DNA of 64,000 nt from Candidatus Omnitrophota bacterium (GCA_021735655.1 JAIPGM010000001.1:277262-341261), one strand, 5' to 3'. Counted from the stretch's first letter, positions 1 to 13,911 are shown. The notes: generated by a model not told the origin, from the sequence alone. Numbers and translations are program-made.

Positions 1-797
1 CCAAAGCCAGAAATATTGGTGCTTGTCAAGCAAAAGGGGATATTTTTTGTTTCATTGATTCCGATGTTAAAATATTTAGCAATACCTTGAGATTAATAAG
101 TGATTCATTTCAATCTTTACCAGAAATTGCTGCCGTTCAAACTGCATGCACAGAATATTGTAGATTCACGAATTTTGCAAGCCAATATCATAATTTATAC
201 CTATATTTTCACATTGAAGCAATCAGGTGTAAATATATTAGGACTTTCATCGGAAATTGTTTTGCAGTAAAAAAAGAAGACTTTGTTTCGGTAGGAGGGT
301 TTAATGAAAATATTAAAAATGCAAGCGTCGAGGATGGTGATTTTGGTATGCGACTGTCTGAGCAGGAAAGAATAATATATCTAAATAAAAACATTAAAAT
401 TGAGCACAGAAGTTATATTAAATTACGAGGCGTACTAAAAAGAATGTTTATTCAATCCCAAGATAAAGTGTATACTTTAATGAAAAATAAAAGTTTATTT
501 AAATTTTCTCCGGATAAAACTCCTCACTCGAAGGAAAAAATATTTTCAGTATTATTGTCGCCTTTGTTGCTGATCAGTTCCATTATTTTAATTTTTGCTC
601 CAAAAACGTATGTAATTTTTCTCTCAGCCTTATTGCTATATTTATTGTCTAGCAGGCAGTTTATCTATTTTACCTTGAAATCCAAAGGGATAATGTTTGC
701 AATTAAAGCTGCTGTTTTTTATTACCTTAATTGCTTAGTTGCTTTCGTTGGCATAACCTGGGGTGTAATCAAGTTTGGGGGGGGTAATATTATCTAA
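1..797 (+). CDS. GT2 polyprenyl-phosphate sugar transferase (ArnC/GtrB-like), 5'-truncated by the window edge
   Basis: Frame-3 translation from nt 3 gives KARNIGACQAKGDILCFIDSDV (DxD region). It continues into ORF 87..797. The C-terminal ~90 aa form hydrophobic helices, typical of ArnC/GtrB-type GT2. Stop TAA 795-797 overlaps the next ATG. Confidence 0.7.
   Translation, partial: KARNIGACQAKGDIFCFIDSDVKIFSNTLRLISDSFQSLPEIAAVQTACTEYCRFTNFASQYHNLYLYFHIEAIRCKYIRTFIGNCFAVKKEDFVSVGGFNENIKNASVEDGDFGMRLSEQERIIYLNKNIKIEHRSYIKLRGVLKRMFIQSQDKVYTLMKNKSLFKFSPDKTPHSKEKIFSVLLSPLLLISSIILIFAPKTYVIFLSALLLYLLSSRQFIYFTLKSKGIMFAIKAAVFYYLNCLVAFVGITWGVIKFGGGNII
777..784. repeat. G8 homopolymer inside the 3' end of the GT2 gene (codes ..FGGGNII*)
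   Basis: Direct read of gggggggg at 777-784 in an AT-rich background. Confidence 0.9.
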
Positions 798-1903
798 TGC
801 AGTATATTAAACAAATTTTTAAACTGATTAATAAGAAAAGTGTGAATCCAGAATATGTTACATTTTTTATTACTAATAAATGCAATGCAAAGTGTAAGCA
901 CTGCTTATATTGGTCTAGCCTTAATTCAGACGAAAACGAATTGTCTTGTGAGGAGGTTAAAAAGATATCGCAAAATATGGGCAACTTTATATTTTTACTT
1001 ATCACCGGCGGTGAGCCATTCATGAGAGAAGATATTTCAGAGATTGCTCGTATTTTTTATGAGAATAACAACATTAAAAAACTTTCCCTAGTGACCAATG
1101 GCTATTTTACTGATAAAATAATTGGACATACTAAGGAAATATTAAGAAGGTGTCCAAAATTACAGTTGAACCTAAGTATTTCCTTGGATGGCATTGGCAA
1201 AAGGCACGATGAAATTAGAGGCCTAGAGGGTATTTTTCAAAGAGCAATTAATACCATTGGCAATCTAAAAAAAGTTCAGAATTCTTATCCGAAATTATCT
1301 ATTTCAACCGTTTGCTCATTTTCAGTTTTAAATCAAAACGATATTTTTGATATTTATCATTACGCAAGGGATGTTCTTAAACTTGATTCATTTAATTGTC
1401 CTTTAGTTCGCGGTAATTTAAAAGACAACTCAATAAAATCAAGTGATATAGCTATATACAAAAAGCTTTCAGAGGTTGTGAGAGCTGATGTTGTCAGCGG
1501 TAAATTAAAAGGGGCCAGCGATCATTTTATATCTAATGTAATATCTGCGGCTAAATTTATTGCGACAGATTTAAGCGTAAAGACTTTTGAGGCTGACAAA
1601 TATATAACTCCCTGTTATGCCGGTAAAATAAATGTAGTTATTTACCCTGACGGAGGGGTGTTTCCTTGTGAATTGCGAAAGGAAAAGTTGGGAGATTTAA
1701 GGACGGCGAATTATGATTTTAAAAAAATATGGTTTTCAAAAAAATCAAAAAGAGTTCTTGAGAAAATAAAAGAAACTAAATGCCATTGTTTTCATGGTTG
1801 TAATATGTTACCTAATGTTTTATATAATTCTCGATATATACCTAAGATGACTGTGAATTATATAAATGTATTATTAAAGAGATCAGGCAATAACTACAAT
1901 TGA
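797..1903 (+). CDS. radical SAM protein with Cys-rich SPASM/twitch-like C-terminal region
   Basis: CNAKCKHC (CX3CX2C) at residues 29-36; GGEPF motif; C-terminal CYAGK..FPCE and CHCFHGC clusters. ATG overlaps the upstream stop (TAATG). Confidence 0.75.
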   Translation: MQYIKQIFKLINKKSVNPEYVTFFITNKCNAKCKHCLYWSSLNSDENELSCEEVKKISQNMGNFIFLLITGGEPFMREDISEIARIFYENNNIKKLSLVTNGYFTDKIIGHTKEILRRCPKLQLNLSISLDGIGKRHDEIRGLEGIFQRAINTIGNLKKVQNSYPKLSISTVCSFSVLNQNDIFDIYHYARDVLKLDSFNCPLVRGNLKDNSIKSSDIAIYKKLSEVVRADVVSGKLKGASDHFISNVISAAKFIATDLSVKTFEADKYITPCYAGKINVVIYPDGGVFPCELRKEKLGDLRTANYDFKKIWFSKKSKRVLEKIKETKCHCFHGCNMLPNVLYNSRYIPKMTVNYINVLLKRSGNNYN

Positions 1904-1904
1904 T

Positions 1905-2846
1905 ATGTTGACTAAAATTAACCTTCAAAAAATAAAATCTTTTACGATATCTATTGTTACGATAATTATTTTCGTTGTATTGTTTTCTAAGATAAATATT
2001 TATCAATTTGCCGAGCATCTCAAAGAGGCAAATCTATTTTTTTTATTATTAGGAGTCGGTATATTTATATTTACCGAATTATTTATTTCTTCTGTTCAGT
2101 GGGTAGAAATACTTCGACAGCTCAATTGCCATATTAGCTTGAAGGAAGCAATGTTTATAAGGATTGGAAGTATTCCGGCAAAATCGATGTTGCCATTTCG
2201 AAGCGGAGAGTTGTTAAGAGCTTTTTATCTTAAAAAACAGAAGCAATTTCCAGTTTCTTTGGGGGTTGGTTCTTTACTCTTTCAGCTCATAATTAATCTT
2301 TTAGTTTTAATTAGCATTATGTCGTCTGCTTACATTTATTTTTTTAAATTAGATAACATTATTTTTTTCTCATTAATCTTAGCATTTCTATTCATTTTTT
2401 GTATATTATCATTTAAATTTATAAATAAGTTTATTCTTTATTTGGCTAAAAAAGTAAATTTTCAATTTTATGAGTCTCTAAAGGCTTTATTCAATATTCA
2501 CAGGAATTTTAAATTAAAAAGTTTAGTGGTGATACTTTTTTATTCGGTTATTATGTGGGTCGGTGAATTGTTTATATTTATTTTTATATTTAAGACAGTC
2601 GGTTTAGATATACCACTATACGCGATACTTATATTTGTACCTTGGACAATCATAATAAGTAATATCCCCATAACCATTTCGGGTTTAGGGACAAGGGAGG
2701 CTAGCATAGTTTTACTTTTTTTACAATTTGGCTCACCTGAAAAATTATTGAGCAGTGGAGTGCTTATGTCATTTATCCAATTTGTTTTACCATTAACATT
2801 CAGTTTGTTATTCCTTAGAAAGTTTTTGAAAAAGATTATGGTCTGA
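1905..2846 (+). CDS. UPF0104 / lysyl-PG-synthase-TM-like flippase-type integral membrane protein
   Basis: 313 aa with ~8 predicted TM helices. Conserved ..ISGLGTREASIV.. segment typical of the flippase-like (LPG_synthase_TM) family. Starts 1 nt after the radical SAM stop. Confidence 0.6.
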   Translation: MLTKINLQKIKSFTISIVTIIIFVVLFSKINIYQFAEHLKEANLFFLLLGVGIFIFTELFISSVQWVEILRQLNCHISLKEAMFIRIGSIPAKSMLPFRSGELLRAFYLKKQKQFPVSLGVGSLLFQLIINLLVLISIMSSAYIYFFKLDNIIFFSLILAFLFIFCILSFKFINKFILYLAKKVNFQFYESLKALFNIHRNFKLKSLVVILFYSVIMWVGELFIFIFIFKTVGLDIPLYAILIFVPWTIIISNIPITISGLGTREASIVLLFLQFGSPEKLLSSGVLMSFIQFVLPLTFSLLFLRKFLKKIMV

Positions 2847-2977
2847 TTAATATTTTATGGTTTCTAGGAGAGTTTTTAAAGGTTAGTAATGCGGAAATAT
2901 TTGGCTAGATAAATAATTTATTATTTTTGAGCGGCAAAAAAAGATATATAGCATTAAGGTAGCAAAATGAGTATACG

Positions 2978-3721
2978 ATGAGCAAGATAATAGCAATTAT
3001 CCCTACTTACAATGAGGCTGGGAATATTTTACCTTTGTTAGGTAAACTTTTTTCTCTGGCAAGTAATATTTCTGTTTTGATAGTGGATGATAGCTCGCCT
3101 GACGGGACATCTCAAATAGTAATAAAGTTGCAAAGAGAATATCCTAAGCTACATTTAATAACTCGGGCATGTCGTCAAGGCTTGGGCAGTGCTTATATAG
3201 AGGGGTTTAAATATGCCCTAAAGAAAGGTTACGATATAATAATTCAAATGGACGCAGATTTATCTCACGCTCCGCGTGAGGTGTTAAAGATGATCGCTTT
3301 AATTGAGAGGTATGATCTAGTTATTGGCAGCAGATATATTAAGGGTGGAGGAGTCTACGATTGGTCATATCCGAGAGTTTTGTTGAGCCGCTGGGCAAAT
3401 ATTTTTTCAAAAATATTGCTTAGGACGCAGGTCTATGACTTAACCAGCGGATTCAAATGCTTGCGAAAGAATGTATTGGAAGAAATAGATTTCCAAACTA
3501 TATCTTCCAGAGGGTATGCTTTCCAGATTGAAATGGTTTTTAGAGCTTTAAGGAAAGGCTTTAAGGTAATTGAGCATCCAATTATCTTTCAAGGAAGAAG
3601 ATATGATAAGTCTAAAATGTCTTTGCCGATTGTCATAGAGGCTTTTATTAGAGTTTTGTGTTTGTTTTTTAATCGATTCTCCAGGGGGCGCAATACAGGA
3701 TCAAATATTATCAATAAATAA
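2978..3721 (+). CDS. GT2 polyprenyl-phosphate mannosyl/glycosyl transferase (Dpm1-like)
   Basis: IIPTYNE..VLIVDDSSPDGT..QMDADLSH motifs of Dpm1/GtrB-type GT2. Confidence 0.75.
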   Translation: MSKIIAIIPTYNEAGNILPLLGKLFSLASNISVLIVDDSSPDGTSQIVIKLQREYPKLHLITRACRQGLGSAYIEGFKYALKKGYDIIIQMDADLSHAPREVLKMIALIERYDLVIGSRYIKGGGVYDWSYPRVLLSRWANIFSKILLRTQVYDLTSGFKCLRKNVLEEIDFQTISSRGYAFQIEMVFRALRKGFKVIEHPIIFQGRRYDKSKMSLPIVIEAFIRVLCLFFNRFSRGRNTGSNIINK

Positions 3722-3872
3722 AGGCCTTTCGACTTAAAGGTTAGGGAAATTTTTTAAGAAATACGATTAAAAAAGTATTTGATTCTATATAGAATATGAT
3801 AAAATTAAGGGATAAAGAAGTGTGTTTTTATATTAGATGCACAATTTACAATGCTAAAGGGAGGTGTCCAAA

Positions 3873-4625
3873 ATGATTAGGACCATGGAAACTTTATGTT
3901 TTGCGGCTTTGATTTTTGCAATAACATTTGCTTTTACTCCATTAGCTTTAGCTTATGATTTAAGTAAGTATTACCCTTTAAATGAAGGTGATAGTTGGGA
4001 GTATTTAACAAGCGGAATAGGCTACGTTGAGGGTGGAGCAGATAAGGCAGAATTTTCCGATATGATTGAAGTAGATAAAATAGAATCAAAAGAATCTATT
4101 TCCGGTAAAAGGACCATGGTAAAGGTTTCGGGAGCCTTAGAGGAAAAAGAATGTTTGGCTGTAGACTCAGAAGGACTAAAACTGTACAAGTTAATAGATG
4201 GTCCAGGTGGTTATGATATATTTACCCCGCCGTTCATGCAGTTGGCAAATCTTGCAGTTGGAGAGAGTAAAACTTTCTTAAGCAATGCAATCGGGTATGG
4301 TGATCGCTCAAGTGAAGGAGCCAGACTGAATACAAATACGATAACATTGGAATCAGTGGAAAGAGTAGAAGTTCCCGCAGGATTATTTGATGATTGCCTT
4401 AAATTTACGTCGACGGGTGAAAGAGCCTACGCAGATGGCAATTATGAAAATATTGAGTCTACCGTTTGGCTTGCTTTAGGGGTAGGTGTAGTTAAGGCTG
4501 ATTATATTTATATCGAACATGATTTTTCTTCAGGCGAGGATAGTACTACTACCAACAAGCGAAATTTGGTTTCAGCAAAGGTAAATGGTCAACAAATCGG
4601 AACTCCAAAGGAAAGTCAAGAATAA
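3873..4625 (+). CDS. hypothetical secreted protein (signal peptide, cleavage near ALA-YD)
   Basis: ATG at 3873 preceded by RBS AAGGGAGGTG. The ORF track begins at GTG 3864. Hydrophobic N-terminus. No recognisable family. Confidence 0.4.
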   Translation: MIRTMETLCFAALIFAITFAFTPLALAYDLSKYYPLNEGDSWEYLTSGIGYVEGGADKAEFSDMIEVDKIESKESISGKRTMVKVSGALEEKECLAVDSEGLKLYKLIDGPGGYDIFTPPFMQLANLAVGESKTFLSNAIGYGDRSSEGARLNTNTITLESVERVEVPAGLFDDCLKFTSTGERAYADGNYENIESTVWLALGVGVVKADYIYIEHDFSSGEDSTTTNKRNLVSAKVNGQQIGTPKESQE

Positions 4626-4725
4626 TAAGGCCAGCGTGCAAGTTTTAGCTAATGAAACTTGATAATTTTTTTATTGCAGTTTCATAAATCCTTCTATACG
4701 ATTCAAATTCAATATTACAATTTAT

Positions 4726-4734
4726 GGGGGGGGG
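4726..4734. repeat. G9 homopolymer in the intergenic region upstream of the GT4 gene
   Basis: Direct read: tttatggggggggg ttaatcc. This is the longest G run in the window. It lies ~120 nt upstream of ATG 4856. Confidence 0.9.
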
Positions 4735-4855
4735 TTAATCCGATCAACATGTGAAGTTCCTCATGAATTGCAGTCTTATCAAAATACGCATAAACATAAA
4801 ATACGAATTAATAAAGATGTTAAGCTATATATAGTTGATAGTTGTAGGGCGAAAA

Positions 4856-5959
4856 ATGAAAAAAATTCTGGTTTTTAACGCTGGAGCTTATATCTACGGA
4901 GCAGAAAGAGGGTTAATTAATTTTATTAGAACTTTGTCTGATAAATTTGAAATAACGGTAGTCTTGCCTTCCCAAGGCCCCCTTTCTAAAAAAATCGAAA
5001 AATTAAATGTATCTTTAAAAATATTTCCGATACCGATCCTTAAAATCTCGCTTTCACCGCTATATTATATTTTTTTTCCTTTTCATTTTATTTTTTCCGT
5101 TATTTATTTTAGCATTTATGCAATCCGCAAAGATATTGAAATAATTTGTAGTAATTCTTTACTTTTAGTTTTTCCGGCTATTGTTGCTAAATTTACCAAA
5201 AAAAGACATATCTGGTATTTAAGAGAGTTTCTGCCTTCTAGTTTTTTGAATAAAGCTCTAGGGGCATTCATTATCAGATTTTCAAACCAAATAATATGTC
5301 AATCTCAAGCTATTAGGGAAGCCTTGCTTGGCAAAGAAAGGGGCATTATTATTTATGAACCTTTAAATGCTACGGACTATAAAATCTACAAATCAGATCT
5401 TGCAAGAAGTGAGCTAAATATCCCTATAAAATCAACGGTTATTTCAATAATTTCTCGAGTGCATCCTTCTAAGGGACAGTATGAATTTATAGTTGATATT
5501 AAAAGGACATTAAAGAAAAATCCCAACATCCTTTTGGTTATCGCCGGTGATATATCGCCGAACAATTTAAGAAATCGTTTATATAAAGCAAAAATAGAAA
5601 AATTGATAGAGGGGGATACTCTAAAAAATGTAGTCCTTTTAGGTTTTAGAGATGATGTTGATAGGATACTTTCTTTAAGCAATATTTGCGTTTTTCCTTT
5701 TAAAAGAAAAGAACCGTTTGGAATTTCTGTAGCTGAAAGTTTAACTTTTGGTAAAATAACTTTTTTTCCTCAGGTTGGAGGTCTAAAAGAAGTACGTGAT
5801 ATCTTTGGTCGGGGAAACGATTTTAGTATAGATAGGATTTGTGAGATAGCCTCAAACTTTGAACCAGCACGAGTAGAAAAGCTCCAAGAATTATATATCC
5901 CTGAAGAGCTTTCTATCGCGACATACAAAAATAAACTTATTCCTATTTTTGAAAATTAA
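4856..5959 (+). CDS. glycosyltransferase, GT4/GT1-fold family
   Basis: MKKILVFNAGAYIYGAERG N-terminus and a C-terminal Rossmann-like domain. Likely start ATG 4856 inside track ORF 4835..5959. Confidence 0.55.
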   Translation: MKKILVFNAGAYIYGAERGLINFIRTLSDKFEITVVLPSQGPLSKKIEKLNVSLKIFPIPILKISLSPLYYIFFPFHFIFSVIYFSIYAIRKDIEIICSNSLLLVFPAIVAKFTKKRHIWYLREFLPSSFLNKALGAFIIRFSNQIICQSQAIREALLGKERGIIIYEPLNATDYKIYKSDLARSELNIPIKSTVISIISRVHPSKGQYEFIVDIKRTLKKNPNILLVIAGDISPNNLRNRLYKAKIEKLIEGDTLKNVVLLGFRDDVDRILSLSNICVFPFKRKEPFGISVAESLTFGKITFFPQVGGLKEVRDIFGRGNDFSIDRICEIASNFEPARVEKLQELYIPEELSIATYKNKLIPIFEN

Positions 5960-7087
5960 ATGAAGCCGTTTAAAAAAAAGATACTTTTTATTATTACCCA
6001 CCTTGAATTGGGAGGAGCTCAGGGTCAGTTGCTTTTGCTTGTAAAAAATCTAGATAGAAACAAGTACTCACTGTATTTATCTTCCGGAGACCAGGGCTAT
6101 CTCAAGGAAGAATTTTTAAAACTCCCATATTTACATATAAAATTAATTCCGGAGTTGATAAGAAATATTAATCCTTTCTACGATTTTATTGCTTTTTTGA
6201 AATTATATTTCTATATCAAAAAAAATAAATTCGATATAGTTCATACTAATTCCCCTAAAGCTTCTATTTTGGGAAGATGGGCGGCTTATCTGGCAGGCGT
6301 AAAAGGTATTATTTACACTGTACACGGTTGGCCTTTTCATAAATTCATGAATCCGATAGTGCATTATTTATATATTTTAATTGAAAAAGTGACCGCCAAG
6401 ATTACAAAAAAGATAATAGTTGTTTCTGAAGCAGACCTTAGAACAGGAATAGAGAATGAAATCGCCGATAAAAATAGAATTTTTCTTGTTCATTATGGCA
6501 TAGAAATAGATAAGTTTAATAAGGTGTATGATCAAAGAAGCGAAATTTTTCCTGGTAATACTGTTTTTACAATCTCTTCGTTTAAGCCTCAAAAGGATAT
6601 TTTTAATTTTTTGAAATTAGCAAAAATGCTTCTTGATAGAAATCCTCAGTTGAATTTTATCATAGCCGGAGACGGACCTTTGCGTAAGAGAGTGGAGAAA
6701 AGGATAGAGTTACTAGGGCTAAGCGGTAAGGTGCACCTAAAGGGCTGGTCTGACGATGTTTCTCTTTTATTTAAAATGGCATCGTTGTTTGTGCTCACTT
6801 CTTTATGGGAAGGTCTACCAGTGTCTTTGATTGAAGCGGTTGTATCAGGAGTTCCGGTGGTAGTCACTAATACCGGTGGCATTTTCGATATAGTGAAAAG
6901 CGGCAATCAGGGGGTGGTCGTCAATCCAACCAATATTTTAGAAATAGAGAGCGCTTGTTGGGAAATATTGAAAAACTATGATAATTGGAGTACAATTGTC
7001 AGGAATGGCCGGAAAAAGTTAAATTTAAAATATTGGTCTTTTGCTAGAACGCTGAGAGAAATAGAAAATATTTATGCTACTATTTAA
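5960..7087 (+). CDS. glycosyltransferase family 4
   Basis: ITHLELGGAQ N-terminal motif; EGLPVSLIEAVVSGVPVV (E-X7-E region) typical of GT4. Confidence 0.7.
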   Translation: MKPFKKKILFIITHLELGGAQGQLLLLVKNLDRNKYSLYLSSGDQGYLKEEFLKLPYLHIKLIPELIRNINPFYDFIAFLKLYFYIKKNKFDIVHTNSPKASILGRWAAYLAGVKGIIYTVHGWPFHKFMNPIVHYLYILIEKVTAKITKKIIVVSEADLRTGIENEIADKNRIFLVHYGIEIDKFNKVYDQRSEIFPGNTVFTISSFKPQKDIFNFLKLAKMLLDRNPQLNFIIAGDGPLRKRVEKRIELLGLSGKVHLKGWSDDVSLLFKMASLFVLTSLWEGLPVSLIEAVVSGVPVVVTNTGGIFDIVKSGNQGVVVNPTNILEIESACWEILKNYDNWSTIVRNGRKKLNLKYWSFARTLREIENIYATI

Positions 7088-8078
7088 GTTGATAGAGCTG
7101 TTAGCGCTTTTCTTTTTTGCTTTTACGCTCAGTATATTTTTTCTTGCTATTTCAAGAAAGCTATCTTTAAAACACAATCTTTTTATCAGAGATAGAAATA
7201 TACCTTATATTGGGGGGGTTAGTTTTTCTCTGGTTTTTATCATTTGCCTTATTTTATTTTCTTTTATTAAAGCTAAAGTTGTGCCTTTTCAGTTTATTTG
7301 GATAATTACCTTTTCATTTATATTGTTGTTGGTTGAGTGGATAGACGATTTGAAGGATTTAAAGCTTAAGGCCAGAGTCCTGATTCAAATCATTTTTGTA
7401 TTTTTATTTCTCCTTTACGGAAAGCAAATCCAGATTTATTTTTTACCAAACTGGGCTAATTATCTTATTTCTTTTTTATGGATAGTAGGGATAACCAATG
7501 CTTTTAATCATCTTGATGTCGCTGATGGGCTATGTGCAGGTATAGCTTTGATTGTTAGCTTGGCATGTTTAGTGATAGCTTTAAAGACTGGAAGCTTTTT
7601 ATTGTTTGTTTTTGTTGCTCTTTTTGGGGTTCTTTTGGCTTTTCTTTTGTTTAATTTCCCTCCGGCTAAAATATTCATGGGTAATGCTGGAAGTCACTTT
7701 TTAGGCTTCTTGTTTGCAACCTTAAGCATTTATGGAGACTATGCCAGCTTCGATAATATTTTAGCCATTTTTTTGCCCCTGTTGGTTCTAGGATTGCCGA
7801 TTGTTGACACATTTTATCTCATTGTGGTGCGTGCTAGTAAGAAAATCTCTCCTTTACGGAAAAGTGATGATCACATCATTTTACGTTATTTGTTAAAGGG
7901 CTATTCTTACAAGCGGTCTTTGGCAAGTATTTATTTTTTAACTGCGGTTTGGTGTTTAAGTGCAATTCTTTTATTGAATGGTCCAGGCCTATGGTGTTTA
8001 ATTTTTCTGATTATTGCCTTTTTGGGAACAATTCTTATGATCATTAAGGCTAATGTCAGTAAATTTTCTAGTTGTTAG
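7074..8078 (+). CDS. polyprenyl-phosphate HexNAc-1-phosphate transferase (WecA/MraY family)
   Basis: Multi-TM protein with NAFNHLDVADGL and other MraY/WecA-family motifs. Confidence 0.7.
   Translation: MLLFKLIELLALFFFAFTLSIFFLAISRKLSLKHNLFIRDRNIPYIGGVSFSLVFIICLILFSFIKAKVVPFQFIWIITFSFILLLVEWIDDLKDLKLKARVLIQIIFVFLFLLYGKQIQIYFLPNWANYLISFLWIVGITNAFNHLDVADGLCAGIALIVSLACLVIALKTGSFLLFVFVALFGVLLAFLLFNFPPAKIFMGNAGSHFLGFLFATLSIYGDYASFDNILAIFLPLLVLGLPIVDTFYLIVVRASKKISPLRKSDDHIILRYLLKGYSYKRSLASIYFLTAVWCLSAILLLNGPGLWCLIFLIIAFLGTILMIIKANVSKFSSC
7212..7218. repeat. G7 homopolymer within the WecA-like gene (codes IGGV)
   Basis: Direct read of ggggggg. Confidence 0.9.
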
Positions 8079-9263
8079 TCCGAGGATTATCCACCAGAGA
8101 AAAGCTACTTGAGGAATAAAGAAAGAGAAATCGACAATATTATGCAGGAGAAACGACAACCCAGCTGCGAATATAGCTAATGATAGTAATGTGTTTTTCG
8201 AAGCTATAAGTATTTTTAAGTTCATTCTTACATAATTAAAAACTATCACTAGCCAGCTTAAAATTCCTATCATTCCAAGCTCACCCCAAATTTGAAGATA
8301 AGAGTTGTGGCTATAGCGAGACCCGGGCAAATAAAAATTGCCTAAACCGACGCCGACAAAAGGGTGTTGTTTGATTATTTCAGTTGTTCCGCGCCAGTAA
8401 GCGACTCTTTGGTGAATAGAAAAAAAGGGGTTGGTTATTTTTTCCGGATTGTTCAGACGTAGATAAAAAACAATTATTGATAATAAGCCGATTACAAGAA
8501 TAGCGGTAATGCTTTTTTTGTTTATTTTTTTACGCCAAAATAGTAGAAAAGGCAACAGACTAAGCAAGGATAACCATCCGCCGATAGATTTAGTAAAGAA
8601 GAAGGCAATAAAAGAAATAAGGACGCAAAAAAAGGCCAGGTATTTATCAAATACCCATTTAGCTTCTTCTTTTTTTTGTAAAAGTAGGCCAAGGCTGATG
8701 AAGATTAGTATTATTAGATAACCGGCTAAAAGATTGGGGTTAATGAAAGGGGCCAAGGCTCTTGATTGCGATAATAGCTCTTTTACAAAATAGTTATTAA
8801 ATAATGCCCAAAGGCTGTAAATGGCCACAAAGCAGCAACTCAGGAGGAGTGTTTTTATCAGAACTATTTGATTGTTTTTTGGGGTAAGCTTAGCGAAGTA
8901 AAATAATAACAGAATGATAAAAAAGTCATAAACTTTATTTAGATTTGATACAAGATCAGAAACAAACAGTGCTGAACCAAATAGGTTTAAGAAAAAAACT
9001 ATGATTATTAAGTTAAAAAAACTTTTCTTGATATTTTTTCGGAAGATAAAAATATATAAAAGGCTAGAGCAAAAAATTACAAAATTAACTGTTGAATCAA
9101 GCATCCTAGAGCCAAATATCGGCAGAAGCGGGTAAAGGAAAATACAGCTAACTATAATTTTCCATATTGCTGACTGTAGTTTTAATTTCTGTTTTTCAGT
9201 CAGAGGCCTGAGCGGTGAATTAAGTTTATTCGCTATTGATTTGGTTAAAGTAATTATTGGCAT
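7998..9263 (-). CDS. O-antigen ligase / polymerase-like (Wzy_C domain) membrane protein
   Basis: ~10 TM helices with HNSYLQIWGELGMIG, a characteristic Wzy_C/WaaL loop motif. Confidence 0.6.
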   Translation of the reverse strand: MPIITLTKSIANKLNSPLRPLTEKQKLKLQSAIWKIIVSCIFLYPLLPIFGSRMLDSTVNFVIFCSSLLYIFIFRKNIKKSFFNLIIIVFFLNLFGSALFVSDLVSNLNKVYDFFIILLLFYFAKLTPKNNQIVLIKTLLLSCCFVAIYSLWALFNNYFVKELLSQSRALAPFINPNLLAGYLIILIFISLGLLLQKKEEAKWVFDKYLAFFCVLISFIAFFFTKSIGGWLSLLSLLPFLLFWRKKINKKSITAILVIGLLSIIVFYLRLNNPEKITNPFFSIHQRVAYWRGTTEIIKQHPFVGVGLGNFYLPGSRYSHNSYLQIWGELGMIGILSWLVIVFNYVRMNLKILIASKNTLLSLAIFAAGLSFLLHNIVDFSFFIPQVAFLWWIILGLTTRKFTDISLNDHKNCSQKGNNQKN

Positions 9264-9351
9264 ATTTTTTAGGTTTGTTACTATTATAACTAGAATTTGA
9301 CATATAGTAAAAAGATTTATATACTTTAAAGGTAGATTTAAAAGGTAAAAC

Positions 9352-10638
9352 GTGAAAAAATTATTTTTAACTATAATTATTTTCGGGCTGTTATTTTTGA
9401 TATCTAGCTATCTCGAAGCTGCTATCTCTTATCGGTCGAGTAAGGTTTTTTTTGAGGGAAAACAGCTTTTAGTAGCTAAACCTGATAGTCAGGGTCGATA
9501 TAGCCAGGCTTCTCCCTTTATAATCAAAGGAGTTACCTGGTCTCCGGAGACAGCCGCTCCTGATTTTGGTCCTAACCCAATATGCCCAAACGAAACTGTA
9601 GAATATGGTTTTTTCTTTGATTGGGCCGGCCGTATACCTCAGGGGCATGAGATTTTTGTTTATTGGAAGGAGCGGCAGTTTGTTAAGCATTACTTAACTG
9701 ATGTTCCGCTGATGAGGAAGATGAATTTAAATACAGTTAGGGTTTATAGTTCCTTCGGCGATGATTTTAGAGAGGGCCGTAAGGTTTTAGATGAGTTATT
9801 CGATAATGGGATTATGATTATTATGAATGTAGCAATGTCTAAAGTTGACATTGATAACCAGAAGTATTTAAAAGTAGTCGAAGCTTACAAAGATCATCCG
9901 GCAATTCTTTTTTGGGCGATCGGTAACGAGTGGAATCTTGACTATAATAAATATTGGGGTTATGAAACAGTAGAAGCAGCAGCCCAAGCTACAAACCAGG
10001 TAGCTAAAGCAATAAAGCAAGTTGATCCAGATCATCCGGTGACCTCAGTTTTGGGTGATCGTTTTAGTGATTGCGATTTTGAAGATTCGGTAAGCCACAT
10101 ACTTGATATTTGTTTAGAGATAGATGTTTGGGGTTTTAATGTTTACCGGGGAAAAAGCTTTAGAGATTTTTTTTCACAAGTTGAGAGCTTAACTGAAAGA
10201 CCTTTTTATATCTCTGAGTTTGGAACCGACTCTTTTCGTACTACTAAATTCAAGGTGGTTGATGAGCATCAGGCTGACAACTGCAAAGGTTGGGAGCATG
10301 AGGCTTTACAGGCAAAGTTTGTTTTAGGCCTTTGGCGGGAGATAGAAAGTAATCTTTCGGGAATTCATTCCGATAAGCAGTGTTTAGGCGGCCTGGTCCA
10401 TGAGTTTAATGATTCGCTTTGGAAGGTTGGCTCTTATCATGTAGGTTTAGGAGGTTTAGTTGACTATTACTCCGAAGAAAGATCTAGTTTTAGAACTTAT
10501 AATACCGAAGGGTTTTATCTTCCTGGGGGTCACCCTGATGATGTGGCTAACGAGGAGTATTTCGGTATAGTTAACGCTGAACGCAAGCCTAAAGAAATAT
10601 TCTTTAAATTGCAGGAATATTACGCTAAGTTAAAGTGA
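9352..10638 (+). CDS. secreted TIM-barrel glycoside hydrolase (GH5-like)
   Basis: Signal peptide; AIGNEWNL (NE(W/P) acid/base-type motif); aromatic-rich barrel. Confidence 0.5.
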   Translation: MKKLFLTIIIFGLLFLISSYLEAAISYRSSKVFFEGKQLLVAKPDSQGRYSQASPFIIKGVTWSPETAAPDFGPNPICPNETVEYGFFFDWAGRIPQGHEIFVYWKERQFVKHYLTDVPLMRKMNLNTVRVYSSFGDDFREGRKVLDELFDNGIMIIMNVAMSKVDIDNQKYLKVVEAYKDHPAILFWAIGNEWNLDYNKYWGYETVEAAAQATNQVAKAIKQVDPDHPVTSVLGDRFSDCDFEDSVSHILDICLEIDVWGFNVYRGKSFRDFFSQVESLTERPFYISEFGTDSFRTTKFKVVDEHQADNCKGWEHEALQAKFVLGLWREIESNLSGIHSDKQCLGGLVHEFNDSLWKVGSYHVGLGGLVDYYSEERSSFRTYNTEGFYLPGGHPDDVANEEYFGIVNAERKPKEIFFKLQEYYAKLK

Positions 10639-10639
10639 T

Positions 10640-10668
10640 TTGACATATCAAGGTATATTCTATATAAT
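10640..10668 (+). promoter_or_regulatory. consensus sigma70-type promoter TTGACA-N17-TATAAT, 9 nt upstream of the lysS ATG (leaderless arrangement)
   Basis: TTGACA at 10640-10645, 17-nt spacer, TATAAT at 10663-10668. No SD before ATG 10678. Confidence 0.55.
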
Positions 10669-10677
10669 CAATACATC

Positions 10678-12093
10678 ATGGAATTGAATGAAAAACTAGA
10701 GAAAATAAGCGAAGAGTTTGGTAACCCCTTCTTGGAGACGAGCTTTCCTAAGTCTTTGACTATTAAAGAGATACTAGATGGATTTGAGGAGGAAAAAGAA
10801 GTCCTGGTTGCCGGAAGATTAATTTCTAAGCGTGAGCACGGAAAAAGCGGCTTTGCTCATTTGAGCGATCATACCGGAAGGATCCAGTTTTATGCTCAGG
10901 CTAATAAATTAGGGGATGTTTATAAGCTTTATAAGGAAATGGATATCGGCGATATTGTCGGAATCCGCGGCAAGTTTTTTGTTACTCGGACCGGTGAGCA
11001 AACGGTTTTAATCGATGAATTAAAACTCCTAGCTAAGGCTCTTCGGCCAATGCCTGAGAAGTGGCATGGCTTAAAAGATGTTGAAGTAAGGTATCGTCAG
11101 CGCTATTTAGATTTAATTGCTAACTCTCAGGTTCGTGATGTTTTTATAAAACGTTCTCAGATAATTTCTTTAATCAGAGAGTTTTTAAATCAGTTAAAGT
11201 TTATTGAGGTTGAGACACCGATGCTTCACACGGTAGCCGGAGGAGCAGCCGGTAGACCGTTTATGACCCATCATAATGCAACTGATGCTGATGTTTATTT
11301 GCGGATTGCTCCTGAGCTTTATTTGAAGCGGCTTTTAGTTGGTGGGCTTGAAAAGGTTTATGAGTTGAATCGAAGCTTTCGGAATGAAGGAACTTCAACC
11401 CGGCATAATCCGGAATTTACTATGCTTGAAGCCTATTCTTGTTATCAGAACTATGAATATATGATGAAGCTTTGCGAAGATTTGTTTTCTTATTTAGCTA
11501 AAGAAATAAACGGCAGCTGTGAGATTGAATATCAGGGGCAAAGGTTAGATTTAACTCCTCCTTGGCAGAGGATTTCTTTTGCTGAACTTTTTAAAAAAGA
11601 GTTTGATGTCGAATCTAGTGATTCTCAGAAGGAAATGTTTGATAAAATTAGTAAGAAATTAAAATTAGCAAAGGGTTTGAGTCGTTCTCAAATCCTGAAT
11701 ATAACTGAGGAGTTGATTGAGAAAAACTATCCTAAGGATAAACCAGCCTTCATTGTTGATTTTTTTACTTGGACTTCGCCTTTGGCTAAGCGCAAAAGGG
11801 ATAACCCAAACTTAGTTGAGCGGTTTGAACTTTTTGTTGCTGGACTTGAAGTTGCCAATGCTTACTCTGAGCTCAATGACCCGATTGACCAGAGAGCACG
11901 TTTTAAAAAGCAACTAGAGACTGAAGATGAGCTTCCAAAGAAAATTGATGATGATTTTGTTTTAAGTTTAGAATACGGAATGCCTCCAGCTACTGGCTTG
12001 GGAATCGGCATTGATAGGCTAGTTATGATTCTTCTCAACCAACCCTCGATAAGAGACGTGATTCTTTTTCCGCTGCTTAAACCTTTAGGTTAA
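10678..12093 (+). CDS. lysS: lysyl-tRNA synthetase, class II
   Basis: FRNEGTSTRHNPEFTMLEAY (class II motif 2) and an OB-fold N-terminus. Confidence 0.9.
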   Translation: MELNEKLEKISEEFGNPFLETSFPKSLTIKEILDGFEEEKEVLVAGRLISKREHGKSGFAHLSDHTGRIQFYAQANKLGDVYKLYKEMDIGDIVGIRGKFFVTRTGEQTVLIDELKLLAKALRPMPEKWHGLKDVEVRYRQRYLDLIANSQVRDVFIKRSQIISLIREFLNQLKFIEVETPMLHTVAGGAAGRPFMTHHNATDADVYLRIAPELYLKRLLVGGLEKVYELNRSFRNEGTSTRHNPEFTMLEAYSCYQNYEYMMKLCEDLFSYLAKEINGSCEIEYQGQRLDLTPPWQRISFAELFKKEFDVESSDSQKEMFDKISKKLKLAKGLSRSQILNITEELIEKNYPKDKPAFIVDFFTWTSPLAKRKRDNPNLVERFELFVAGLEVANAYSELNDPIDQRARFKKQLETEDELPKKIDDDFVLSLEYGMPPATGLGIGIDRLVMILLNQPSIRDVILFPLLKPLG

Positions 12094-13250
12094 TGTTAAC
12101 CGAAATTTATTTAGCTAGACGTTATATTTTTAGGGGTCGCACTCGACACATCTCTTTTATTGGTATCATTTCTTGTTTAGGAGTTGCTGTCGGGGTCGCC
12201 GCTTTGATTATCGCCTTTTCAATTGTAAATGGAATTGATGGCGGTTTGATGAAACGAATCATGCGTTTTCAGGATCACTTGACCGTTGATAGTTTCGATC
12301 AAGAAAGTCTGCTGGCGGTTAAACAAGATCTAGAAAACTGGGATGAGGTCGAGACAGCTCAAATTTCAGTTAATACTCAAGTTTTTGCTAAATTTGGTGA
12401 AACAATAATGCCTTTAGCTGTAAGAGGGGTGGACTTTTCTGACCCTAAAGCTAAAGAGGAATTTTCTCAATATATAAAGAAAGAGTTTGCCCAAGAGGGT
12501 TTTTTCATCGGCCAAGGCTTAAGCCAGCAGTTCTTTATCGATAAAAAAATAGAGTTTTACCCTTTAGAGAAAAACCTTAAACTTAAAAGCAGCAAGGTTA
12601 GAGGGGTCTTCAAAGTAGGCTTATACGATATTGATAATTATTATTTGATTACTGATTTAAAGAAAGCAAAGTCTCTTTCGGCTAATTATTCTTTATTCTT
12701 AGGGGTAAAACTCAAAAATCCCTACTTGGCTGATCAAATTAAGGAAAGGCTGTTAAATAAATATTCCAACAAGTTGTTGGTTAACAGCTGGATTGAGTCA
12801 AACTCAGCTCTTTTTGCTACCTTAAAACTAGAAAAGTTAGCCTTATTTATTATTTTAGGTTTAATTATTTTGGTAGCTTCGTTTAACATATTCTCGGCGC
12901 TGACAGTTAAGGTAGTTGAGAAGACCAAAGATATTGGAATTTTAAGGTCTTTAGGTTTCAGAAGAAGAAGCATCCGAACTATTTTTACCCTTGGCGGTTT
13001 AATGATTGGCTCAACCGGGGTAGTTTTGGGGTCTTTGCTCGGAGTTGGTACTTGTCTTGTGTTTGAGAAGTATCCTTTTGTTAAAATTCCGGCTGACATT
13101 TTTGGCACTGATTACTTGCCGTTGGTAGTTGACTATAAAGACGTATTAGCAATTGCTATCGTCGGTTTGATTATTTCTTTTATCTCTAGTTTTTTGCCGG
13201 CTTATCGAGCGAGTAAGCTTAATATTTGTGAGGCGCTTAGATATGAATGA
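12093..13250 (+). CDS. lolC: lipoprotein-release ABC permease (LolC/E/F, FtsX family)
   Basis: FtsX-type 4-TM topology with a large periplasmic loop. It is the single permease gene beside lolD. Confidence 0.75.
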   Translation: MLTEIYLARRYIFRGRTRHISFIGIISCLGVAVGVAALIIAFSIVNGIDGGLMKRIMRFQDHLTVDSFDQESLLAVKQDLENWDEVETAQISVNTQVFAKFGETIMPLAVRGVDFSDPKAKEEFSQYIKKEFAQEGFFIGQGLSQQFFIDKKIEFYPLEKNLKLKSSKVRGVFKVGLYDIDNYYLITDLKKAKSLSANYSLFLGVKLKNPYLADQIKERLLNKYSNKLLVNSWIESNSALFATLKLEKLALFIILGLIILVASFNIFSALTVKVVEKTKDIGILRSLGFRRRSIRTIFTLGGLMIGSTGVVLGSLLGVGTCLVFEKYPFVKIPADIFGTDYLPLVVDYKDVLAIAIVGLIISFISSFLPAYRASKLNICEALRYE

Positions 13251-13911
13251 GTTGATAGAATTAAAATCTGTAAACAAAACTTATAACAACGGTATGCCTT
13301 TTGCGGCTCTTTGTGATATATCTTTATCAATAGCTAAACAAGACTATTTGGCAATAACCGGTCCTTCGGGAGCCGGAAAATCAACCTTGCTTCATATTAT
13401 CGGCGGCCTTGAACTTCCGACTAGCGGTGAGGTATTTTTTCAAGAAAAGCAAATATCTAAGCTCAACGATCGCGATCTTTGCCTTTGGCGTAATAAAACC
13501 GTGGGTTTTGTTTTTCAGTTTTATCATTTAATCGAAGAGCTGAATGTATTGGAAAATGTAGCAATTGCCGTATTTGGTCAGATGCAAAAATACTCTTTCA
13601 AAAAAGCTAAGGAGTTGTTAAAATATTTAGGACTTGAAAAAAGAGTTGAGGCTTTTCCATCGCAACTTAGCGGTGGCGAAAAACAAAGGGTAGCTATTGC
13701 TCGAGCTTTGGTCAATGACCCTCAGGTGCTTTTTTGTGACGAACCGACTGGTAATCTTGATAAGGAGTCACAAGAGAGAGTGGTTAGTTTGCTTTCGAAT
13801 TTAAATAGGAGCAAGAAAAAAACAATAGTTTTAGTGACCCATAATCAGGAGCTAGCTAGACAGGCAAAAAAAGTTTTAGTTATTGAAGACGGAAAAATAA
13901 ACGGAGGGTGA
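13228..13911 (+). CDS. lolD: lipoprotein-release ABC ATPase
   Basis: Walker A GPSGAGKST; LSGGEKQRVAIARAL signature. Confidence 0.8.
   Translation: MRRLDMNELIELKSVNKTYNNGMPFAALCDISLSIAKQDYLAITGPSGAGKSTLLHIIGGLELPTSGEVFFQEKQISKLNDRDLCLWRNKTVGFVFQFYHLIEELNVLENVAIAVFGQMQKYSFKKAKELLKYLGLEKRVEAFPSQLSGGEKQRVAIARALVNDPQVLFCDEPTGNLDKESQERVVSLLSNLNRSKKKTIVLVTHNQELARQAKKVLVIEDGKINGG

Follow-up and report, generated by a model that had tools for sequence, protein, structure and literature searches.

We analyzed a radical S-adenosylmethionine (SAM) enzyme, here called rSAM, and the membrane glycosyltransferase of family 2 (GT2) encoded directly upstream of it, here called GT2a, in a stretch of 64,000 nucleotides (the window; G+C content 37%) from a Candidatus Omnitrophica metagenome-assembled genome (MAG). 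Comparison with related loci suggests that the two proteins form a two-enzyme unit, which in many organisms is one fused protein. It is probable that rSAM and the GT2 work together in making envelope glycans or glycolipids; to the more specific proposal, that rSAM tailors the sugar which GT2a puts on a lipid carrier and does so before flipping, we give an even chance. The original prediction, made from the window alone, had centred on a triad of an ArnC/GtrB-type GT2, the radical enzyme and a UPF0104 membrane protein. The finding is more general than first seen, and its centre is the GT2-rSAM couple, not the ArnC-based triad. The genes and motifs of the couple are the following.

Up to 797, plus strand: GT2a, membrane GT2 (Pfam GT2/GT21 families), 3' part comprising 264 of 327 codons, with the TAA stop at 795-797
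795..799, plus strand: TAATG stop/start overlap of GT2a and rSAM, from direct sequence reading, with the rSAM ATG at 797-799
797..1903, plus strand: rSAM, radical SAM enzyme of 368 amino acids (aa) identified by Pfam, with the TGA stop at 1901-1903
881..904, plus strand: codons of C29-X3-C33-X2-C36 (CNAKCKHC), predicted SAM-binding [4Fe-4S] site, 99% conserved in 83 family members
1613..1801, plus strand: predicted auxiliary-cluster codons, C273-X12-G286-X4-C291 ... C329-X-C331-X3-C335, from cysteine conservation and a match to the BtrN twitch profile

The TAATG overlap probably couples the translation of GT2a and rSAM. Reading of the open reading frames (ORFs) together with Pfam confirmed this junction, the rSAM cysteine motifs, the 1-nt spacer between the rSAM stop (1903) and the UPF0104 ATG (1905) and the downstream gene list, all as originally described.

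The conservation of this arrangement was determined in 91 fetched loci, in which ORFs were called mechanically and scored with hidden Markov models (HMMs) derived from the proteins of the window and from relatives of these, and the neighbours were scanned with Pfam. Purpose-built HMMs were used because single-sequence phmmer and jackhmmer searches missed UPF0104 cases and merged the two GT2 types. A GT2 gene directly adjoined rSAM on the same strand in 33 of the 65 loci having both flanks, and the ORF immediately upstream of rSAM encoded a GT2 in half of the loci scored for it (30/60). Among the closest relatives a GT2 was directly adjacent in 16 of 22 loci, 14 of these being of the GT2a type and lying directly upstream. 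The GT2 and rSAM genes overlap by 4 nt at the same junction in two loci, L081 and L083, and in L083 housekeeping genes surround the isolated pair, which has no small gene next to it. UPF0104, on the other hand, was found within 8 kb of rSAM in only 5 of 83 loci. The frequent GT2 adjacency and the rarity of UPF0104 indicate that the conserved unit is the GT2-rSAM pair, and the triad was rejected as a conserved unit. A single rSAM::UPF0104 fusion was seen (P0022, locus L085), followed by another rSAM and a PMT_2/TPR protein.

The two enzymes also occur as one polypeptide. GT2 and rSAM are encoded by a single ORF in L026 (Omnitrophota) and L041 (Elusimicrobiales), and 13 of the 150 best cluster representatives of the family were at least 550 aa long, all 13 being GT2a-type::rSAM fusions. 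The GT2 domain was N-terminal in 12 of them and the order was reversed in P0254. Judged from sequence, these independent fusions are the strongest evidence that rSAM and GT2 would share a target molecule. The tie between the radical enzyme and envelope glycosylation that had been proposed from the window is thus supported by the conserved GT2 adjacency and the repeated fusions.

The family is large. A word-indexed search at E<=1e-5 returned 765 relatives in Omnitrophota, Nano-, Woese- and Undinarchaeota, Wolfebacteria and others, and an exhaustive profile search of 1.84 billion representatives of 50%-identity clusters returned 2,709 cluster representatives at E<=1e-30. A scan of one genome per species detected relatives in at least 578 bacterial and archaeal species, whose range takes in many bacterial phyla as well as DPANN archaea, Methanosarcinales and Methanomassiliicoccales. 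A single locus, L073, comes from a named isolate and not from a MAG, Pelotomaculum terephthalicicum JT; its rSAM is 32% identical and has GT4 and GT2 genes on its flanks.

The window rSAM, to which P0001 is 100% identical, matched Pfam Radical_SAM with 59.7 bits and shows the features of PF04055: a partial TIM barrel with CX3CX2C and a SAM-binding motif of the GGE type. Residues 273-330 matched SPASM (PF13186) with 28.2 bits against a gathering score of 21.5. The C-terminal cysteines lie in CYAGK...FPCE (C273, C291) and CHCFHGC (C329, C331, C335). In the 83 family members C29, C33 and C36 were conserved in 99%, C273 in 100%, C291 in 99%, C329 and C331 in 96% and C335 in 75%, so that the auxiliary pattern of the family is CX12GX4C ... 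CXC(X3C), with only four or five C-terminal cysteines kept. The SPASM signature reportedly has seven cysteines, arranged as CX9-15GX4C, a gap, CX2CX5CX3C, a further gap and C, which bind two clusters. Twitch domains are truncated SPASM domains, in which the CX9-15GX4C hairpin and further cysteines complete one auxiliary cluster. A full seven-cysteine SPASM domain was ruled out for rSAM by the lack of CX2CX5C and of a terminal cysteine, and by the presence of C335 in only 75% of members. The four cysteines conserved in at least 96% of members have BtrN-like spacing, and the family profile aligned with the BtrN twitch region (positions 262-329, E 3e-4). BtrN, a twitch sugar dehydrogenase, has a single auxiliary cluster fully ligated by cysteine, and the cysteine pattern of the rSAM family resembles it. 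The N_Twi_rSAM model scored 59.5 bits against rSAM, with a cut-off of 170. Despite its Pfam label, the C-terminal domain therefore looks twitch-like, with one auxiliary cluster, rather than like full SPASM; of the two readings originally given for the C-terminus, SPASM and twitch, the reduced pattern is more easily reconciled with twitch than with the canonical seven-cysteine SPASM.

Neither rSAM nor any of the 29 relatives aligned with it reached an NCBIfam cut-off; their highest scores were those of AhbD and NirJ, about 80-100 bits against cut-offs of 500-650. Membership of the anaerobic sulfatase-maturating enzymes (anSMEs), AhbD/NirJ, MftC, PqqE and Tes was rejected on scores far below the cut-offs. 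rSAM is neither an anSME, nor a heme enzyme (AhbD/NirJ), nor a housekeeping enzyme of the HemW type; the original prediction had named anSMEs and HemW-like enzymes as outcomes that would count against it. An HpnJ-type head-group enzyme was also rejected, since the window rSAM has no B12-binding domain and HpnJ is not among the NCBIfam matches listed for it. The family thus appears, by sequence, to be an uncharacterized and widespread radical SAM group of the twitch/SPASM clade that matches no curated family. No N-terminal domain of the RRE type (RRE, recognition element of RiPPs, peptides made on the ribosome and modified after translation) or other leader-binding domain is present in rSAM, in which one short helix precedes the cluster motif with its first cysteine at residue 29. 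Its top structural matches include SkfB, SuiB, CteB and ChlB. The comparison figures for rSAM were 23.8 with SkfB, 23.7 with BlsE, 22.4 with SuiB, 20.0 with anSME, 19.8 with both MoaA and viperin, 19.7 with PqqE, 18.4 with DesII, 17.4 with Tes and 15.1 with BtrN.

The full-length partner, P0121, has 327 aa. An alignment of 14 orthologues (A4) revealed a GT-A domain with a DxD motif (DSD in the window protein), an interface helix and three C-terminal hydrophobic segments. The best NCBIfam match was MftF in all 15 orthologues scored (best E 1e-31; 30.9-87.9 bits against a cut-off of 280), and EpsD, TIGR04283 and, in 6 of the 15, SunS also matched below cut-off. The ArnC model gave 20 bits against a cut-off of 529 with the GT2a of L083, over the N-terminal 100 residues only, and the HpnI model matched GT2a weakly (24.8 bits against 310). 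In a Foldseek search with an AlphaFold2 model of GT2a (mean predicted local distance difference test score 88.2) the nearest structures were PcManGT (6yv7), the Chlorella hyaluronan synthase (TM 0.66-0.69) and BcsA; a PDB profile search agreed, and no GtrB, ArnC or dolichyl-phosphate mannose synthase (DPMS) was among the top 50 matches. An ArnC/GtrB/DPMS-type assignment was ruled out by profile scores and fold together, so the polyprenyl-phosphate-sugar synthase of ArnC/GtrB type first seen in GT2a gives way to a protein with profiles nearest MftF/EpsD and a fold nearest PcManGT, hyaluronan synthase and BcsA. The model predicts a membrane-embedded, cellulose-synthase-like fold. Membership of the processive cellulose, hyaluronan and chitin synthases was nevertheless rejected, because the QxxRW processivity motif is absent from GT2a, the aligned site reading (L/I)(K/R)x(M/D/E)(F/Y), for example LKRMF.

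Locus L087 encodes a GT2a homologue (8001-9008, 36% identical) without any rSAM, together with LytR_CpsA_Psr, Wzy_C, a DUF6541 protein and several methyltransferases, indicating that this type of GT2 also works without a radical partner.

The neighbours of the family were recurrent. A Dpm1-like GT2 was found within 8 kb of rSAM in 33 of 83 loci and HpnJ-like B12-binding radical SAM enzymes (B12-rSAMs) in 28 of 83. For the latter HpnJ was the best or second-best NCBIfam match, over the full length and alternating with BchE, with 117-182 bits against a cut-off of 577. Glycosyltransferases of family 4 (GT4s), epimerases/dehydratases of the short-chain dehydrogenase/reductase (SDR) type and methyltransferases also recurred. 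Among 74 large polytopic membrane proteins the commonest family was the PMT_2-type glycosyltransferase of fold class C (GT-C; 14), followed by Wzx (7), MurJ-like proteins (5) and Wzy_C (4). Three membrane-anchored proteins with a Pfam Sulfatase domain were read as LtaS/EptA-like, and no soluble sulfatase or heme-pathway neighbour was seen in the loci scanned. The recurrent neighbours place the family in the company of genes whose products make, tailor, flip and transfer lipid-linked sugars.

Close relatives extend this picture. In L081, L088 and L090, whose rSAMs are 51-55% identical, a Dpm1-like GT2, an NAD-dependent epimerase/dehydratase, a DegT aminotransferase, further radical SAM enzymes, GT2a and rSAM occur with mutually homologous, weakly PMT_2-like membrane proteins of 666-702 aa, a gene set that by analogy would follow the logic of the Arn pathway. 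L089 (rSAM 55% identical) carries a YfhO GT-C and a YdjC deacetylase (12175-13038) whose best match was HpnK (187 bits against a cut-off of 232.6), with no hopanoid genes seen in the locus. The HpnK-like YdjC protein and the HpnJ-like B12-rSAMs of other loci suggest head-group chemistry of the HpnJ/HpnK type on a non-hopanoid lipid. The UPF0104 proteins of L013 and L075 weakly matched HpnL, MprF and the GlcN-PG flippase model. In the Elusimicrobiales MAG locus L041 two further fusions, an HpnJ-like B12-rSAM with a Dpm1-like GT2 (9107-11290, 727 aa) and a UPF0104 domain with a SAM methyltransferase (12135-13715, 527 aa), sit directly after a GT2::rSAM fusion. The B12-rSAM and the Dpm1-like GT2 look like a second couple of glycosyltransferase and radical enzyme in the same pathway.

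Unusually dense clusters of radical enzymes were observed in two loci. L030 (Saccharibacteria) has at least seven SPASM-type profile stretches around its GT2-rSAM pair, several of them short or low-scoring, and L072 (a Pseudomonadales MAG) has six B12-rSAM genes in 17 kb.

Downstream of rSAM the window encodes the following proteins.

1905..2846, plus strand: UPF0104 / LPG_synthase_TM (MprF-flippase-like, 'PplT') membrane protein (PF03706, 133.9 bits)
2978..3721, plus strand: soluble Dpm1/PpgS/AglJ-like GT2 (PF00535, 103.6 bits)
3864..4625, plus strand: secreted or membrane-anchored protein of 253 aa, weakly DUF3108-like (PF21347, 22.7 bits, below cut-off), whose N-terminus forms a hydrophobic signal segment
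4835-5959, plus strand: GT4 glycosyltransferase (PF00534, PF13692, PF13439)
5960-7087, plus strand: second GT4 glycosyltransferase (PF00534, PF13692, PF13439)
7074..8078, plus strand: MraY/WecA-family polyprenyl-phosphate sugar-1-phosphate transferase, the predicted initiating enzyme (PF00953, 113.2 bits)
7998..9263, minus strand: Wzy_C (O-antigen ligase/polymerase-like) membrane protein (PF04932, 63.7 bits)
9352..10638, plus strand: GH2_C-like TIM-barrel hydrolase, predicted to be secreted, with an N-terminal signal-like hydrophobic segment (PF02836, 42.4 bits)

The UPF0104 protein belongs to its family by both models: the PF03706 match covers profile positions 7-300 of 302 (cut-off 33.4), and TIGR00374 gave 59.2 bits against 43.2. 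The GT2 at 2978-3721, whose best NCBIfam matches (PpgS, AglJ and dolichyl-phosphate hexose transferase) were all below cut-off, is a candidate for the polyprenyl-phosphate sugar synthase of the locus. The MraY/WecA-family protein matched the WecA and archaeal MraY models with about 70 bits, also below cut-off. A DUF3108_like protein 35% identical to the 253-aa protein (E 6e-30) is encoded in L089 (15455-16159), there too downstream of a Dpm1-like GT2, and the 253-aa protein may belong to the system as a conserved periplasmic part and not lie here by chance. Nothing points to it as a substrate of rSAM, a role once considered for it, and it was conserved in that one related locus. A perfect sigma-70 consensus (10640-10668; TTGACA, 17 nt, TATAAT), 10 nt 5' of the lysS start, probably marks the end of the glycan locus.

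The WecA/MraY-family ORF (plus strand) and the Wzy_C ORF (minus strand) converge with an 81-nt 3' overlap (7998-8078). In the divergent intergenic region between Wzy_C and the hydrolase a near-perfect sigma-70 site (9297-9325) lies opposite a minus-strand site (9311-9283). About 27 successive ORFs of at least 150 aa, all on the plus strand with short gaps or overlaps, form a long co-directional array from 9352 to 35675, which begins with the hydrolase, lysS and then a LolC/E-like permease (read from its translation).

For the reaction itself we infer the substrate, the order of the two enzymes, the type of chemistry and the flipping step as follows. GT2a, with its active site at the cytoplasmic face of the membrane, would glycosylate a lipid-anchored acceptor, either polyprenyl phosphate (or a glycan linked to it) or a membrane lipid. 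rSAM would then cleave SAM at its CX3CX2C cluster, the resulting 5'-deoxyadenosyl radical taking a hydrogen from that sugar, and the single cysteine-ligated auxiliary cluster would handle the electron, to give an oxidized, epimerized, deoxygenated or ring-contracted sugar. In the window locus the UPF0104 protein would flip the tailored lipid-linked sugar to the outer leaflet, where it would be displayed or used by periplasmic enzymes, Wzy_C here and GT-Cs of the PMT_2/YfhO type in relatives. The proposed order follows the 'synthase - modifier - flippase' sequence of HexSDF, GpgSDF, ArnC/D/EF and HpnI/K/J/L, except that the modifier would be a radical enzyme.

Each of these systems shares part of the arrangement. 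In the synthesis of bacteriohopanetetrol cyclitol ether by HpnI/HpnK/HpnJ/HpnL a GT2 adds a hexosamine to a lipid, and a YdjC deacetylase and a radical SAM enzyme remodel the sugar by ring contraction. HpnJ, which follows HpnI and HpnK, and calditol synthase are radical SAM enzymes that act on a lipid-linked hexose following a glycosyltransferase (PMC13459092). The protein types are the same, including a UPF0104 membrane protein, but the window rSAM differs from HpnJ in lacking a B12-binding domain and in belonging to the SPASM/twitch clade, and so is not its homologue at family level; the loci examined showed no context of a squalene-hopene cyclase, and members of the family occur across Archaea, the Candidate Phyla Radiation (CPR) and DPANN. 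GpgSDF of P. aeruginosa (PMC12713373) and HexSDF of C. difficile (PMC10128005) are synthase-deacetylase-UPF0104 operons. Their order of glycosyltransferase synthase, head-group modifier and UPF0104/MprF-like flippase is that of the tightly coupled GT2, rSAM and UPF0104 genes of the window, although the modifier is here a radical SAM enzyme instead of a deacetylase, the synthase a membrane GT2 and not of the GT4/GT28 type, and UPF0104 an inconstant partner.

UPF0104 proteins are predicted glycosylation flippases found in PMT/STT3-like or deacetylase-plus-glycosyltransferase neighbourhoods (PMC5898192), and they occur fused to GT-A, GT-B, O-antigen-ligase and methyltransferase domains (bioRxiv 10.1101/2022.03.11.483950). 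Flipping has been shown only for MprF and is predicted for HexF, GpgF and AglD (PMC12713373, PMC10128005, PMC5898192). The Arn (ArnC/ArnD/ArnEF/ArnT), GtrA/B/C and undecaprenyl phosphate (Und-P)-pentofuranose systems combine a synthase, tailoring at the cytoplasmic face (by ArnD or an epimerase), a flippase and a GT-C, and in the three-component systems an epimerase works on Und-P-pentofuranose (PMC11127046). As in Arn, the loci of close relatives have a Dpm1-like GT2, an SDR, a DegT aminotransferase and a PMT_2-like GT-C; unlike in Arn, the GT2 coupled to rSAM is not ArnC/GtrB-like, the tailoring enzyme is radical and the window's part of the locus has no GT-C. The GT2-rSAM couple would fall under a known kind, the tailoring of lipid-linked sugars before flipping, here with an uncharacterized and very widespread enzyme family. 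No SPASM/twitch radical SAM enzyme coupled to a GT2 was described in the literature searched on radical SAM enzymes with glycosyltransferases, flippases or lipid-linked sugars, in agreement with the original statement that such a module is not a standard component of glycan loci.

Several observations weigh against the proposed order and substrate. The rarity of UPF0104 beside the family implies that flipping by UPF0104 belongs to the window locus and not to the family. Among the more distant family members about one in two lacks a directly adjacent GT2, and the more distant half of the family, whose neighbours are less regular, may differ in function. Two of the fusions, P0172 and P0187, have no transmembrane segments, so a membrane-bound substrate is not obligatory. 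In sequence and fold the peptide maturases SkfB, SuiB and CteB are about as near to rSAM as are the sugar enzymes BlsE, DesII and BtrN, and homology therefore leaves the substrate class unfixed. The three hydrophobic segments of GT2a, if all spanning, would put a C-terminally fused rSAM on the wrong side of the membrane; presumably one of them is non-spanning, in-plane or re-entrant. Fusion and adjacency fit an action of rSAM before the GT2 as well as after it, and the window opens within GT2a, the upstream half of the locus lying outside it.

The main rival, which we consider rather unlikely, places rSAM one step earlier, where it would turn a nucleotide sugar into an unusual, possibly labile donor for the adjacent or fused GT2 by decarboxylation, deamination/dehydration, epimerization or C-C rearrangement, in the manner of BlsE and DesII, which use nucleotide-linked sugars. 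The resemblance of rSAM to these two enzymes, its conserved basic residues and the two fusions without transmembrane segments favour such a role. The similarity to the MoaA/viperin core is, however, generic to the radical SAM clade, most partner GT2s are membrane-embedded, and the recurrent UPF0104, GT-C, HpnK-like deacetylase and HpnJ-like radical SAM neighbours use lipid-linked sugars in known systems. To our knowledge, moreover, enzymes that tailor nucleotide sugars are rarely fused to their transferases. BtrN, BlsE, DesII and SpeY are 11-17% identical to rSAM in sequence and, unlike it, use soluble antibiotic intermediates and have no membrane GT2 as partner or fusion.

It is quite improbable that rSAM modifies the lipid part, by a C-C bond, a methylation-independent cross-link or another polyprenyl or acyl change of the kind made by Tes, Mss and Gms, with the GT2 supplying the head group. 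The similarity to Tes is restricted to the common radical SAM core, and the fixed partner is a glycosyltransferase, not an enzyme of lipid synthesis. The family is also frequent in CPR and DPANN organisms, which are not known to make lipids of their own.

A peptide or protein system, in which rSAM would be a RiPP or protein maturase forming a thioether, a C-C crosslink or an epimerized residue and the GT2 would glycosylate the product, as in MftC/MftF or the SunS-type glycocin enzymes, is very improbable. MftF and SunS are among the matches of GT2a, the peptide maturases and ChlB are among the top structural matches of rSAM, and mycofactocin synthesis by MftC and MftF likewise combines a SPASM-clade radical enzyme with a membrane GT2. 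The matches are far below cut-off, however, and membership of the mycofactocin system was rejected (MftC 60.2 bits against 265; MftF as given above; no small precursor ORF): there is no MftA precursor, MftB chaperone or RRE, and the context is one of polysaccharide genes. No credible ORF for a small precursor peptide was found in the gaps of the window, and there is no room for one between GT2a, rSAM and UPF0104. Peptidase or exporter partners were not seen in the loci examined, where the neighbours are polysaccharide and lipid-carrier genes, and the stand-alone pair of L083 has no small gene beside it. The notion that rSAM is a common SPASM enzyme with a housekeeping role (an anSME, a heme enzyme of the AhbD/NirJ type or a MoaA-like one) and lies in a glycan locus by chance can practically be dismissed: AhbD and NirJ1/2 do give the best NCBIfam scores, but only 78-92 bits, the loci hold no soluble sulfatase or heme genes, the LtaS/EptA-like Sulfatase-domain proteins not being anSME clients, and the fusions and the GT2 adjacency, which recur across phyla and both domains of life, contradict it.

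Beyond the window, the tailoring of a lipid-linked sugar by rSAM may be one case of something wider. We propose tentatively that the GT2-rSAM pair or fusion is an unrecognized biosynthetic unit, widespread in Bacteria and Archaea and especially so in Omnitrophota, CPR and DPANN. Its product, made on a lipid carrier by radical chemistry and delivered to the surface by a GT-C, would be a non-standard sugar, such as a carbocyclic or ring-contracted, keto, epimerized or deoxy one. HpnJ-like B12-rSAMs, sometimes fused to Dpm1-like synthases, would work together with it.

Few radical SAM enzymes are known from the primary assembly of envelope glycans, and the two precedents, HpnJ and calditol synthase, are lineage-specific and uncharacterized in vitro. 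Even if the reaction proves to be a common one, for instance a simple dehydrogenation of which an aerobic version is known, a large family annotated as 'radical SAM protein' would gain a pathway annotation. If the proposal is true, a radical, oxygen-independent tailoring step lies inside the core logic of envelope glycosylation. The GT2-rSAM pair, or its fusion, is a concrete two-protein or one-protein target for new sugar chemistry, and the unit could help to explain the unassigned surface glycans and glycolipids of uncultivated anaerobes such as the Omnitrophota, CPR and DPANN.

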